Below, one piece after another: positions 1 to 4,726 of a DNA stretch of 31,938 bases. A program made the translations under genes and the position numbers. Location: positions 1-31,938 of the forward strand of contig JBBRJC010000001.1 in the NCBI GenBank assembly GCA_038220135.1, in the 5' to 3' direction. Position 1 is the first letter of the stretch. Each line of letters begins with the position of its first letter. Source of the stretch: Bryobacterales bacterium. Lineage in GTDB: Bacteria; Acidobacteriota; Terriglobia; Bryobacterales; Bryobacteraceae. Under the pieces are notes generated by a model, which was given only the letters and a program-made list of their open reading frames with translations, was not told the DNA's origin and did not search any database.

Positions 1-165
1 CGCGGGTGGATTTACTACAACGAATTCTCCATCTGGGCAATGCTGTTCATGACGCTCAGCGGGCTTTATTTATGGCTGGCTAGCAGGCCTGGGTGGCACT
101 GGGCACAAGCCGCATTTGCCGGAGGGCTGGCGCTGTTTGGCGGGCTCTATTGGATGGTGCGATGA
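1..165 (+). CDS. C-terminal fragment of a PepSY-associated TM-helix membrane protein (5' truncated by window edge)
   Basis: Frame 1 is open from base 1: RGWIYYNEFSIWAMLFMTLSGLYLWLASRPGWHWAQAAFAGGLALFGGLYWMVR*. The 'SGLYLW' helix is typical of PepSY-TM proteins. TGA 163-165 overlaps the next ATG (ATGA). Confidence 0.65.
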   Translation, partial: RGWIYYNEFSIWAMLFMTLSGLYLWLASRPGWHWAQAAFAGGLALFGGLYWMVR

Positions 166-725
166 CACTGCGCAACATTCATTTACTACTTGGGTTGTTT
201 GTGAGCAGCTTCGTGTTGATGTATGCGTTGAGTTCCATGCAGATGTCTCACAATTCCTGGTTTTCTGTGAAGCCCGCTGTGGAAGAATCGCAGTTTATGG
301 TGACGACGGGTCTGGAGGCACGGGCAGTCGCACGGCTGCTGATGGAGCAGGGGCTGCGCGGAGAGATTGCGCAAGTTCAGCCATCGAAGGCACCGGTGAA
401 GTTTCGGATGCAACGGCCAGGAACAGTCTATGAGGTGGTCTACGATGCCCAATCAGGCGAAACGAAGGTGAAAACCAGCACAGCGGGTTTTGCAGGCATG
501 CTCAACCGGCTGCATCACATCAGCGGGTTTTGGCATGAGTATGGATTGATCAACTGGTGGGCCGGAGCGCTGCTGTTTACGTCAATGGCACTCATGGCGC
601 TGGCGCTAACGGGCATCTACTTGTGGTTCAGAATTTATAAAGAGCGTATGGTTGGAGCAATTCTGTTGGCACTTAGTTTGGGATACGGACTGGGTTTGAT
701 TGTGATGATGCGGAGTGCCGGATAA
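162..725 (+). CDS. PepSY-associated TM-helix domain protein
   Basis: ATG at 162 is coupled to the upstream stop, so it is preferred over the ORF-track start at 93. Motifs: 'IHLLLGL', 'LNRLHH', 'ALTGIYLW', plus several hydrophobic helices. Confidence 0.7.
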   Translation: MTLRNIHLLLGLFVSSFVLMYALSSMQMSHNSWFSVKPAVEESQFMVTTGLEARAVARLLMEQGLRGEIAQVQPSKAPVKFRMQRPGTVYEVVYDAQSGETKVKTSTAGFAGMLNRLHHISGFWHEYGLINWWAGALLFTSMALMALALTGIYLWFRIYKERMVGAILLALSLGYGLGLIVMMRSAG

Positions 726-1253
726 CGGGATTTGACACCCACTCAAATGCTGCCGTCGGCACTGCTCTGACAATATTTCCATTCGCATGGCTTGCACCAA
801 TATCGCCGATTGGGAGACCGGCCCCAACGGTAATTGTGTGAAGCAGTTCTTCGAGCCGGCGCGGCGGAGGCGATCTTTGAAAATTCGCCATCCAAATTTA
901 TTTCGATATCTTCTGATACTTTTGCCGGAACCTTCGCAACAATTGCGTTTCCTGATAGCGCACGCCGTTATATCGTTGCACAGCACCGGATCTGGAGGTC
1001 GCTGACCCAAACCGTGTGACTGGCCGTCATACTGGCGCTGCGTTTGGGTAGCGGGCTTGGTTGGGATGATACAAGTCCCGGATGGAGGCGTGAGCAACGT
1101 TTCATGATAAGGTGGCACGCCGTTATATCGTTGCACCGTGCCCAGACCCGCATTGTATGCTGCCAAAGCTTTGTGCACCTGAGCAGTGCGTCACTGACAG
1201 AAAACCATGTGGCAGCGCCGTCATGTTGGCAATTCCCGAAATGGAGGCGTGTG

Positions 1254-1395
1254 CTACTTTGATAGCTTCTGATACTTGGCCAGAATCTTTTCAACGTACA
1301 GTTGCGTTTCATGATACGATGGCACGCCGTTATATCGTTGCACAGCGCTCAGACCCGCATTGTATGCTGCCAAAGCTTTGCGCCCCGGATCAGGA
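1254..1395 (-). pseudogene. Detached copy C of the transglycosylase 3' end, reading frame intact
   Basis: Encodes [42 protein letters not shown]. It has 10 substitutions and no indel relative to 1882-2023. Confidence 0.85.
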
Positions 1396-1494
1396 GGCCG
1401 CTGACAAAAACCGTGTGGCAGGGCCGTCATATTGGCGCTGCGTGTGGGTATCGGGCTTGGTTGGGATGATATTAGTCCCGGATGGAGGCGTGTG

Positions 1495-1635
1495 CTACTT
1501 CGATATCTTCTGATACTTCGCCAGAATCTTTTCAACGTACAATTGCGTTTCAAGATACGGTGGCACGCCGTTATATCTTGCACGGCGCCCAGACCCACCT
1601 TGTATGCTGCCAAGGCTTTGCGCACCTGATCAGGA
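1495..1635 (-). pseudogene. Detached copy D of the transglycosylase 3' end, with a 1-nt deletion
   Basis: 7 substitutions plus one deleted base (TATATC-TTG vs TATACCGTTG) relative to 1882-2023. Confidence 0.85.
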
Positions 1636-1881
1636 AGTCGTAGACAAAACCGTGAATTGGGCTTGGTTCGAATGATACAAGTCCCGGATCTTCGGCGCTC
1701 GCGAGAAATTATTCGGTTATGCTCACGAGAAACGACCCACCAGCCCGGCGTGGCCGGGGATGATAACGTCTTGCCCACCTATGCCTTACTGGCCAAGGGG
1801 CGCCTCCTGGGCTGGTCAACTCTAATTGAGCACAAGTGGTCAAGTTTTGGTGAGCGCCGAGGTCCCGGATGGAGGCGTGAG

Positions 1882-2535
1882 CTACTTCGATAGCTTCTGA
1901 TACTTCGCCAGAATCTTTTCAACGTATAGTTGCGTTTCAAGATACGGTGGCACGCCGTTATACCGTTGCACAGCGCCCAGACCCGCATTGTATGCTGCCA
2001 AGGCTTTGCGCACCTGATCAGGATCGTCTTTGAAACGCACAAGCAGTTCAGTCAACATGCGCGTGCCAGCATCCACATTTTGCGATGGATCGTGTGGGTT
2101 CGCGCCCAAGCCTTTTGCCGTTGCCGGCATCAGTTGCATCAAACCAATTGCACCCTTGGGGGACAGCGCGTCTTCCTGATACGCCGATTCAGCTTGCACC
2201 ACCGAATGCAGGAAAGCCGCTGGAATGCCGTAACGATCTGCAGCCTGATCAATCAACTCGCGCGCGGTCGCCTTCGGCTTTGGAGCAGCTTCGGCTACAA
2301 CTGCAACCGGAGCAGGAAGTGCGGGGGCCGCTTCCTCCACCTCAAAGCCTACAATTTCAGAAGCAGGTAAAGTCATTCGCCCAGTGGCGGTTTCCAGTTG
2401 CACCACATCCCCTTCTAATTGATGGCCTAAGCAGCGGATGCGGAATCCATTTTTCAGCAATGCCTGCTCCGCCCCGCAAAGTGGAAGGCAACAAATACCA
2501 AGAAATATTAGGCAACGCAGCAGCACTACAATCAA
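1882..2535 (-). CDS. Soluble lytic transglycosylase (SLT domain), secreted
   Basis: Motifs: catalytic 'QAES', 'GAIGLMQLMP', 'ALAAYNAG', '[10 protein letters not shown]'; hydrophobic signal peptide. The start is probably TTG 2535 or GTG 2526; the ORF-track ATG at 2580 would leave only 14 bp to the divergent thrC. Confidence 0.92.
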   Translation of the reverse strand: MIVVLLRCLIFLGICCLPLCGAEQALLKNGFRIRCLGHQLEGDVVQLETATGRMTLPASEIVGFEVEEAAPALPAPVAVVAEAAPKPKATARELIDQAADRYGIPAAFLHSVVQAESAYQEDALSPKGAIGLMQLMPATAKGLGANPHDPSQNVDAGTRMLTELLVRFKDDPDQVRKALAAYNAGLGAVQRYNGVPPYLETQLYVEKILAKYQKLSK

Positions 2536-2594
2536 TGACGATAGTTTCGCACACTCCGTGCAGGCCGATTTCGCTATCATAATGGTTCGTTCCC

Positions 2595-3773
2595 ATGACT
2601 ACCATAACCCACTTGGAATGCTCGGTTACCGGCGAGAAGTACGAAGCAGGCAAACTGCACAATCTGTCGAAAGATGGCTGGCCCCTACTGGTCCGCTACG
2701 ACTTGAAAAAGGTGCGTGACAACTGGAACCGTGATTGGCTGGCCAACGGCCCGCGCAGCATGTGGCGCTATGCACCGGTACTGCCGGTGGCGAAAGCAAA
2801 CTCAATCATTTCGTTGGGTGAGGGCTGGACGCCGCTATTGAAGCTGAACCGTTTGGGACCGCAGTTGGGCATGACCGACCTGTGGTTGAAGGACGAAGGC
2901 ATTAACCCAACCGGTTCGTTCAAGGCACGCGGGCTATCGTGCTGCATTTCCATGTGTGTTGAGTTGGGCGTAAAAAAAGTGGCGATCCCATCGGCTGGGA
3001 ACGCGGCGAGCGCGATGGCGGCCTACGCTGCTGCGGCCGGACTTGAAGCACATATTTTTATGCCTCAAGATGTGCCGCAAGCTAATTTTATCGAGTGCAA
3101 AGCATTTGGTGCGAACGTAACGCTGGTGGACGGATTGATCAGTGATTGCGCAAAAATCGTTGGCGCACGGAAGGATGAAGAAGGCTGGTTCGATGTTTCT
3201 ACGCTAAAAGAGCCCTATCGAATTGAAGGCAAGAAAACTATGGGATATGAGTTGGCCGAACAAATGCGCTGGCAGTTACCTGATGTGATTTTCTATCCCA
3301 CCGGCGGCGGCGTCGGCATCATCGGCATGTGGAAAGCGTTTGATGAGTTGGAAGAGATTGGGTGGATCGGGCCAAAGCGTCCGAAGATGATTGCCGTACA
3401 GGTGGATGGATGCCAGCCAGTGGTGCGTGCCTTCCAAAAAGGCGCCGAGCGCAGTGAATTTTGGGACAATGCCGAAACTTGCGCGAGCGGCCTGCGTGTG
3501 CCCAAGCCATTGGGCGATTTCCTGATTCTGAAAGCAGTGCGTGATTCCGGCGGAACAGCAATTGCGGTGAGTGACGACGAACTACTGGATGCTGGCATTC
3601 GACTGGCTGCAATGGAGGGTCAATTCATTGCCCCCGAAGGCGCGGCTTGTATGGCGGCATTGGAAAAATTGCTGGCTAGTGGATTCCTGAAGCCTACTGA
3701 AAAAATGGTGATTTACAACACAGGTGCTGGTTTGAAGTATTTGGAAGCATATTCCACGCGGTTTCCGCGTTAG
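2595..3773 (+). CDS. thrC: Threonine synthase (PLP fold type II)
   Basis: Motifs: 'SMWRY', 'SLGEGWTPL', 'KDEGINPTGSFKARG' (PLP lysine), 'SAGNA', 'YPTGGG', 'PEGAA'. Confidence 0.9.
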   Translation: MTTITHLECSVTGEKYEAGKLHNLSKDGWPLLVRYDLKKVRDNWNRDWLANGPRSMWRYAPVLPVAKANSIISLGEGWTPLLKLNRLGPQLGMTDLWLKDEGINPTGSFKARGLSCCISMCVELGVKKVAIPSAGNAASAMAAYAAAAGLEAHIFMPQDVPQANFIECKAFGANVTLVDGLISDCAKIVGARKDEEGWFDVSTLKEPYRIEGKKTMGYELAEQMRWQLPDVIFYPTGGGVGIIGMWKAFDELEEIGWIGPKRPKMIAVQVDGCQPVVRAFQKGAERSEFWDNAETCASGLRVPKPLGDFLILKAVRDSGGTAIAVSDDELLDAGIRLAAMEGQFIAPEGAACMAALEKLLASGFLKPTEKMVIYNTGAGLKYLEAYSTRFPR

Positions 3774-4726
3774 GAATCTTCCACAAGATCCAGCACGCCT
3801 TCAATCGTACCCGGCGCGTTTCCCTCCAGGCGATTGTTGACGAACAGATAAGTCTTTTGCCGCTGCGTAAGGGCTCGTTTAACCAGCCCAGCGACGGCTT
3901 CTCGCGCCGCAGGATTCGGTTCCTGCACAGCTTGGTATGGGGCAAACTTTTCGACAGCCTCTTCGTAGGGGCGGTTGCGCTTCAGCAGTGCTCGGGCTAC
4001 TGTAAAATCGGTCGTAAACGCGCCGGGCATGGCGATTTGCGTGCTTAGTTCCGGCATCCGCGTCCAGGCATTGAATACGTGCGCAACGCCGTGGTTTTTG
4101 AGACATTCAAAATACGGCAGGCCGAGAAATTCGGGGTTGCGAATCTCCACCCCATAACGGAATCCTTGCGGCAGGCAAGCCAGAAAGGCATCAAGCAGGT
4201 CGATGAATTGATCAGCGCCCTCCATGGCAGCTTTCGGGAAAGTGCCGAATTCAAACATTACCACCGCCGTGCGGTCGCGGTATTGCTCGAGCGGTGCCAG
4301 AAACATCTCACGCAACAGTTCAGCATTGAGAAACTGATCGTTGGCAAGACCTGCCCGGGGGCCGTATCGCGCATGCGTGGGAAACTGTTTCACCGTAATC
4401 TCTTCAGGCACTTTGAATGCGAACTGCAATTTCTGGGGTGCGGAACTGAATAGCTTTTGCCAAAACACCGGACTAGGGAATTGATAGAAGGAAAAATCGC
4501 CGCAGACAATGGGAAAGGTGTCGGCATATTCGGCAAGGCAGGTTTCCTCAAATTTCTTCTGCGAAAACTTGCCCCGAGTCAGGTAATTTTCCTCGTGATA
4601 GATCCTCCCCATCCAGCCCGGGTATTTCCAGGAACTGGTTCCCATAAGCACATTCTGACGGGCGAGGGCTTCGAGCGCGGTGGCAAGACGCGAAGGAGGT
4701 TCAGCAAACAGGGATAGCGTTGACAT
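3770..4726 (-). CDS. DUF72 (YecE-like TIM-barrel) protein
   Basis: Motifs: 'MGTSSWKYPGW', 'SFYQFP', 'FAFKVP', 'EFG', 'VEIRN', 'VNNRLEGNAP'. ATG 4726 is chosen because the longer ORF overlaps lexA. Confidence 0.88.
   Translation of the reverse strand: MSTLSLFAEPPSRLATALEALARQNVLMGTSSWKYPGWMGRIYHEENYLTRGKFSQKKFEETCLAEYADTFPIVCGDFSFYQFPSPVFWQKLFSSAPQKLQFAFKVPEEITVKQFPTHARYGPRAGLANDQFLNAELLREMFLAPLEQYRDRTAVVMFEFGTFPKAAMEGADQFIDLLDAFLACLPQGFRYGVEIRNPEFLGLPYFECLKNHGVAHVFNAWTRMPELSTQIAMPGAFTTDFTVARALLKRNRPYEEAVEKFAPYQAVQEPNPAAREAVAGLVKRALTQRQKTYLFVNNRLEGNAPGTIEGVLDLVEDS

Follow-up and report, generated by a model that had tools for sequence, protein, structure and literature searches.

A probable decayed tandem duplication across a convergent gene junction underlies the repeated 3' ends of a lytic transglycosylase gene in a Bryobacterales genome

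Analysis of contig JBBRJC010000001.1 of a Bryobacterales bacterium (assembly GCA_038220135.1, positions 1 to 31,938 of the forward strand; hereafter the window) indicated that slt, a gene coding for a lytic transglycosylase, is followed by four displaced copies of its own 3' end, each paired with a spacer. The array formed in this way lies between slt and a convergent gene coding for a PepSY_TM-like membrane protein. It is best read as a decayed tandem segmental duplication of five units of about 240 bp that includes the stop codons of both PepSY_TM (+ strand) and slt (- strand), a reading to which we assign a probability of about 0.86. The structure is real but ordinary, and the array most likely without function. 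The window is an entire 31,938-bp contig of a fragmented metagenome-assembled genome (MAG; G000, 676 contigs, 71% complete, 4.2 Mb), and Pfam and profile scans of the contig revealed genes of housekeeping type only. Named relatives of the neighbouring thrC gene likewise assign the contig to the Acidobacteriota, order Bryobacterales.

A self-BLAST search with the slt 3' region as query recovered four copies, named D, C, B and A in order of distance from the gene, with matches at 1475-1635 (94.4% identity, E 1e-69), 1234-1395 (92.0%, E 5e-63), 1098-1186 (91.0%, E 2e-31) and 899-984 (79.6% with 6 gaps, E 5e-13), respectively. A first-pass annotation of the window, made from the letters alone, had described four further slt tails with their individual lesions, one starting point for all of them and spacers related to each other, and each of these descriptions held on alignment. 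All slt-tail copies are bordered by the junction CCTGATCAGGA or variants of it, and the four inner junctions are all the same slt-to-PepSY join, CCTGATCAGGA followed directly by GG.CGCTGAC and variants, with the units placed head-to-tail and in one phase. Within slt the duplication junction falls at about 2023-2025, TGATCAGGA occupying 2015-2023. The live slt tail, the last 142 nt of the gene (1882-2023), is the right half of unit 5, and the length of the slt C-terminus is equal to that of its relatives, while the inner copies carry neither a promoter nor the 5' part of the gene.

In each unit a PepSY 3' end of about 85-95 nt is followed, after a linker of 9 nt, by the 142-nt slt 3' end. Unit 1 has as its left half the live PepSY tail, which occupies 639-725 (the final ~85 nt of the gene) and is the apparent source of the spacers; PepSY_TM orthologues with an equal C-terminal length were present in 5 same-genus genomes. 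The parts are balanced, with five slt tails and five PepSY tails, the outermost halves of which belong to the two live genes. Both ends of the array are continuous with unique flanks, on the right through the live slt tail and on the left through the live PepSY tail, and no significant spacer or tail was detected beyond copy A. Five balanced halves of each kind, with the outermost ones residing in live genes, are therefore the signature of a tandem duplication spanning a convergent junction. The coordinates of all features are given in Table 1.

Table 1. Features of the slt-PepSY_TM junction (positions in the window)
Feature	Position	Strand	Basis or state
PepSY_TM-like membrane protein gene, 187 aa, convergent with slt	162..725	+	Pfam PF16357/PF03929
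F, 172-nt stretch between PepSY stop and copy A	726..897		Unique in genome
Copy A, apparently oldest displaced slt tail	898-~1000	-	TAA stop, several internal deletions
Spacer S4, putative full-length PepSY-tail pseudo-copy plus 9-nt linker	1001..1097	+	Aligned to 639-723
Copy B, displaced slt tail	1098-1188	-	Terminal ~50 nt lost, stop included
Spacer S3, putative PepSY-tail pseudo-copy with internal deletion of ~30-37 nt	1189..1253	+	Sequence comparison
Copy C, displaced slt tail, frame still open	1254-1395	-	10 substitutions
Spacer S2, putative full-length PepSY-tail pseudo-copy, linker 1486-1494	1396..1494	+	Aligned to 639-723
Copy D, apparently youngest displaced slt tail	1495-1636	-	7 substitutions and 1-nt deletion (frameshift)
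Spacer S1, putative PepSY-tail pseudo-copy with internal deletion, split by a miniature inverted-repeat transposable element (MITE), linker reaching slt stop	1637..1881	+	Sequence comparison
MITE, ~172 bp	1690..1861		Imperfect 11-bp inverted ends CTTCGGCGCTC / CCTCGGCGCTC
slt, lytic transglycosylase gene, 232 aa	1882..2580	-	Pfam PF01464, E 5e-25

Local alignment of the spacers showed a match, with strand and order conserved, to the terminal ~85 nt of the adjacent PepSY gene, and the match ends at the last codons of that gene. Translated in frame, S2 aligns to the real PepSY end, KERMVGAILLALSLGYGLGLIVMMRSAG followed by the stop codon, and the in-frame match also covers the PepSY stretch AILLALSLGYGLG; moreover, the spacers carry states of the PepSY tail of this genome (..S.G at the end) that are absent from the orthologues. 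The chance level of the match was assessed by scoring every 250-nt chunk of the genome on both strands (n=55,845) under several scoring schemes. With the scheme suited to ~70% identity none of the 55,845 chunks reached the score of S2 and 3 reached that of S4, while under a second scheme the scores were reached by 7 and 11 chunks, respectively; two further schemes, tuned to high identity, were less discriminating. The body of slt was rejected as a source of the spacers, its single weak match being confined to S2 (p ~0.015) and not shared with S4. Judging from match scores, from position and orientation, and from the fact that the match ends at the stop codon, the spacers are very probably homologous to the PepSY tail. 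The PepSY origin of the spacer and the MITE in the gene-proximal spacer are both points that had escaped the first-pass annotation.

Since the genome derives from a metagenome, strain variants of one tail might have been strung together during assembly, an origin also named by the first-pass annotation, as a consensus artefact. Such an origin would suit the fragmentation of the MAG into 676 contigs, the position of 21 of its 60 long-period arrays at contig ends or without a flanking open reading frame (ORF), and the stretch 1314-1558 (C-S2-D), which lies outside independent cover. The cover elsewhere was obtained from 151-nt contigs of public runs of two other studies (X2 and X3), at most one of which can be the source sample of the MAG. 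Contigs of run X2 match 778-928, 1044-1194 and 1559-1711 without difference, the last one being the D-S1-MITE junction, and contigs of run X3 match 1163-1313 without difference (B-S3-C) and 950-1098 with one 1-nt insertion. These contigs cross tail-to-spacer joins that exist in the tandem arrangement only; in addition, each unit has indels of its own and one of them carries the MITE. An assembly or consensus artefact is refuted by the matching X2 and X3 contigs, and the chance that the array nevertheless arose in this way is negligible. In run X4, an aquatic metagenome, a 151-nt contig corresponding to 1894-2021 showed 10 differences from the live slt tail, fitting none of the copies A-D; its source is probably a related strain or species.

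Comparison of the displaced copies with the live tail gave, over alignable columns, 7 differences in 140 for copy D (5.0%), 10 in 141 for C (7.1%), 10 in 93 for B (10.8%) and 17 in 97 for A (17.5%). The polarised series claimed in the first-pass annotation is correct, with the oldest copy farthest out, although given these counts only A is clearly apart from the others in its distance to the live tail. The spacers are about 80-90% identical to each other and all about equally distant, by some 30%, from the real PepSY tail, and therefore units 2-5 would derive from one slt-proximal unit, unit 1 being older. The decay gradient is accounted for by this history, in which units 2-5 share descent from the slt-proximal unit whereas unit 1 (PepSY tail plus copy A) goes back to an older split.

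The variants are distributed among the units as a mosaic. In the spacer and linker, unit 5 groups with unit 2 and unit 4 with unit 3, while in the 5' part of the tail unit 5 groups with unit 4 and unit 3 with unit 2; copies D and A have two states in common that are absent from the gene and from copy C. This sharing of variants therefore argues for unequal exchange or gene conversion between units and not for block-wise insertion at a boundary core. Of the changes that could be assigned to branches, those on the live lineage were 3 synonymous and 1 non-synonymous, and those on the displaced copies 11 non-synonymous and 6 synonymous, plus the frameshift and truncations (p=0.23 against the random expectation of 75% non-synonymous); the changes of copy C itself were 4 non-synonymous and 2 synonymous. 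The changes private to the displaced copies are consistent with neutral decay, and the live outer tails remain under selection.

Codon 28 of the repeated tail reads CAG (Q) in copy A, CAT (H) in B and C, and CTT (L) in D and the gene. In the closest relative on record, P0002 (84% identical overall), the tail is the same as the live tail except for Q at the codon 28 site. The series of codon 28 states together with Q in P0002 indicates, therefore, that the copies are snapshots of the past of the gene itself and not foreign alleles. As such the displaced copies provide an ordered record of the path of one codon (Q, H, L), a small natural time series.

The mosaic variants, and the two states of D and A absent from the gene and copy C, would also be expected if the displaced tails were silent cassettes acting as gene-conversion donors that vary the slt C-terminus, in the manner of pilS/pilE. 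This explanation is extremely improbable, because the copies contain a frameshift, truncations and deletions, their changes fit neutral decay, the P0002 tail is one residue off the live tail and so gives no sign of diversification, and the units also hold a PepSY pseudo-tail, for which such a scheme offers no role. An SLT of periplasmic housekeeping type would, besides, hardly be expected as a target of variation.

Under the tandem duplication reading, the two genes would once have ended 8-9 nt apart, and one illegitimate exchange or template switch would have fused a point near codon 186 of slt (TGATCAGGA) with one near codon 157 of PepSY. This founding join would have duplicated the stretch with neither gene harmed, each gene retaining the outermost half-unit on its own side. 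Unequal homologous exchange and gene conversion among the units may later have raised the copy number and shuffled the variants. The inner copies have decayed neutrally by substitutions, the frameshift, truncations and the MITE insertion. The breakpoint would be common to all copies because a single founding junction was inherited by every unit. The array is one of many such scars in this genome, which would persist preferentially where only the 3' ends of genes are duplicated.

The first-pass annotation had instead proposed repeated tail replacement by an integrating unit of ~240 bp. In its most developed form this explanation would resemble the accretion of microCIMEs (CIME, cis-mobilizable element), with successive site-specific integrations at the slt 3' end bringing replacement tails and the elements decaying to gene-less remnants of ~240 bp. 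A precedent is found in Streptococcus salivarius, in which gene-less tandem units occur at gene 3' ends (PMC7563491). The common breakpoint and the decay rising with distance are as expected from accretion, although the gradient does not discriminate against tandem duplication, and the broken synteny downstream of slt also agrees with it.

We nevertheless consider accretion very unlikely. The interior of the unit is the tail of the local neighbour gene and not element DNA, and the counts of the two halves balance at 5:5. Profile searches of the contig found no recombinase (PF00589 included), integrase, integrative and conjugative element (ICE) or integrative and mobilizable element (IME), which bears out the first-pass statement that no recombinase is visible in the window; the four tyrosine recombinases of the genome are all on other contigs. 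Where that annotation had envisaged a spacer next to an integrase, no second copy of the unit or of the spacer was found elsewhere in the 71%-complete genome. The tails correspond to earlier states of the gene itself rather than to foreign alleles, and the variants are mosaic within tails whereas a crossover at a boundary core should transfer entire blocks. The same structure in two copies at unrelated convergent gene pairs, described below, needs no such element. The repeated tail of 142 nt is, furthermore, long for an identity segment of an attachment (att) site. The idea of a tail-replacement system akin to an integron or a CRISPR array, attractive but misleading, can thereby be set aside.

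The first-pass annotation had suggested comparing the orthologous loci for a variable copy number or a full element at the same breakpoint; a single slt tail was found in each of the 22 relatives with slt, including one tail each in the 14 named relatives with an slt-thrC locus. In each of the five same-genus genomes (L040-L044) slt has a single tail and a DHH-like gene (MKVRVLYHDHCFDG...) lies downstream of it in the same orientation, while PepSY is located on a different contig. In the present genome the DHH-like gene is on contig C667, with neither tail nor spacer upstream, so that synteny is broken downstream of slt, PepSY adjoining slt here and the DHH-like gene adjoining it in the congeners. 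The single tails and the other slt neighbours in relatives indicate, therefore, that the PepSY-slt junction and the array are lineage-specific. A reciprocal rearrangement was sought by comparing the region upstream of the DHH-like gene on C667 with the DNA downstream of PepSY in relatives, and no shared sequence was found. On the P0002 contig a convergent gene ends 8 nt past the slt stop, in agreement with the 9-nt linker. An SLT query against metagenome and genome contigs recovered no close relatives, and an exact-protein look-up gave no match.

Several observations weigh against the tandem duplication reading. Unit 1 has 172 nt (F) where units 2-5 have the 9-nt linker. A tight nhmmer profile of the four spacers recovered, genome-wide, the spacers only and not the PepSY tail, and permissive gap scoring (Smith-Waterman) ranked a few G-rich loci higher (on C463, C70 and C6); as sources of the spacers these loci were discarded on inspection, their gappy alignments being judged spurious. 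The missed PepSY tail and the higher G-rich scores mean, therefore, that the homology of the spacers rests on ~67-70% identity plus position and orientation. For the convergent gene beside slt in P0002, the C-terminus of PepSY gave no hit in a word-index search, and a candidate from an exhaustive search, P0135 (37-aa match), was rejected because it lies on a different contig. Neither copy-number variants nor alternative joints were seen in four runs, in which cover is sparse and contig-based, and the founding microhomology is unreadable because divergence is too great.

The stretch F contains a linker-like GGAGGCG (866-872), followed at 873-890 by 18 nt that echo the end of the slt tail, ATCTTTGAAAATTCGCCA, just before the stop of copy A. 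F is colinear with a spacer plus tail end, although the similarity is non-significant (p~0.06). F, or 866-890 within it, may be the remnant of a further, sixth unit that is mostly deleted.

Across the 4.2 Mb of the genome, Tandem Repeats Finder (TRF) revealed 60 tandem loci of long period (>=80 nt), or 14.3 per Mb. By a crude ORF-based assignment on a draft MAG, 13 of these loci lie between convergent ORFs, 14 between co-directional ORFs, 1 between divergent ORFs and 11 inside a single ORF, the other 21 being those at a contig end or without a flanking ORF mentioned above. The ratio of convergent to divergent arrays, 13:1, has a one-sided sign-test probability of ~0.001. Examples are the loci C239:2682-3022, C64:7659-7973, C446:736-1104, C5:17466-18311 and C29:965-2042. 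The three of them that were checked, on C239, C64 and C446, show the slt-PepSY architecture in a young two-copy form, with 156/157, 152/157 and 172/184 identical positions, and each duplicates both stop codons of a convergent, Pfam-supported gene pair (GH20/unknown, DUF1508/unknown and PurK/DUF1501, respectively). Samples of two same-genus genomes contained 3 arrays in 558 kb (Poisson p ~0.04 against the 14.3 per Mb found here), and the array density of the present genome looks about 2-3 times that of the congener samples.

The same structure could also have been formed if tail-to-tail junctions were a mutational hotspot, converging transcription or replication-transcription conflict triggering template-switch duplications of 100-300 bp in this Bryobacterales lineage. 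The 13 convergent long-period arrays against 1 divergent, and the 14.3 arrays per Mb against the 3 in 558 kb of two congeners, speak for such a hotspot. The 14 co-directional arrays, however, also fit a survival filter, in which duplicated 3' ends are harmless and duplicated promoters or 5' ends are not, and the position classes are crude, ORF-based and drawn from a draft MAG. We regard a hotspot as possible but rather unlikely. If it were true, the convergent bias and the density would reflect formation and not only survival, and arrays of the slt-PepSY type would be a natural, ordered fossil series of gene 3' ends. The genome-wide excess of duplications at convergent gene ends may in any case merit comparative study.

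The MITE in the gene-proximal spacer is flanked by a target duplication of 9 bp, GTCCCGGAT, at 1681-1689 and 1862-1870. It belongs to a family with at least 14 copies on other contigs of the genome (C220, C56, C203 with two, C651, C458, C19, C72, C34, C151, C101, C283 and C125), each with its own 8-9-bp target duplication. The copies are 92-99% identical and the family would therefore have been recently active; a transposase partner of the family was not identified. Because the MITE interrupts the spacer, copy D is spaced 387 nt from the gene instead of 241 nt. An Rfam search returned one sub-threshold match only, to a snoRNA model inside the MITE, which was taken as chance.

The start codon of PepSY_TM (ATG at 162) overlaps the TGA (163-165) of an upstream 5'-truncated membrane-protein ORF (1-165). 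This ATGA overlap suggests a two-gene PepSY operon that is truncated at the end of the contig. Open frames as long as 133-190 aa, at 606-1178 (-), 1254-1778 (-) and 1112-1513 (+), run through the array because the repeated pseudo-tails are without stops, and gene callers are likely to misannotate these spurious ORFs as hypothetical or SLT-like proteins. A promoter and terminator scan gave results no better than those of shuffled sequences. TRF missed the array in the window because the copies are too diverged or gapped. Repeats of this kind break short-read assemblies. They can be recognised by a simple rule, namely that a spacer consisting of the tail of the convergent neighbour, together with balanced counts, points to tandem duplication across a convergent junction.

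Among known systems, several were compared and set aside. An integron cassette array was rejected, as there is no integrase on the contig, no inverted repeats were found in 1-4500, and the units, being homologous to one another, are not distinct cassettes. A CRISPR array was rejected since the spacers are mutually homologous, the repeats are of 142 nt and diverged, and no cas domains were found on the contig. A diversity-generating retroelement was rejected as well, because the contig showed no reverse transcriptase domain and copy D differs from the gene by changes that include C/T, T/G, T/C and C/A, which are not restricted to A positions. A literature search for exactly this architecture in bacteria found nothing relevant.

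The microCIMEs of S. salivarius are gene-less units of 130-220 bp that form tandem series at the 3' ends of rpmG, rpsI, fda and rplL, decay being most advanced in the units farthest out (PMC7563491). MicroCIMEs and CIMEs of the S. salivarius and S. thermophilus ICESt3 family are bounded by att sites of the integrase of a resident ICE or IME, and their interior is element DNA. The array described here differs in that its interior is that of a neighbour gene, its repeated part is 142 nt long, and the contig carries neither an integrase nor an element.

The closest mechanism is bacterial tandem duplication and amplification (PMC9997567), which corresponds to the simple serial tandem duplication that the first-pass annotation had listed as an alternative and which the present evidence supports. 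In Acinetobacter baylyi the founding join of an amplification is made between sites of 0-5 bp identity (PMC9997567). Shared features are the head-to-tail arrangement of the units in one phase, one novel junction common to all of them, flanks colinear with the unit content, and intact outer genes. Laboratory amplicons, however, are 12-290 kb long, selected and unstable, whereas the unit here is of ~240 bp, apparently unselected and of an age at which it has diverged by 5-30% and gained deletions and a MITE. The closest genomic pattern is that of the tandem repeats of long period that lie in non-coding DNA of Ehrlichia ruminantium (PMC10710844), with which the about 60 arrays found here compare; the Ehrlichia genome is a reduced intracellular one, while the host of the slt-PepSY array is a free-living member of the Acidobacteriota (Bryobacterales).

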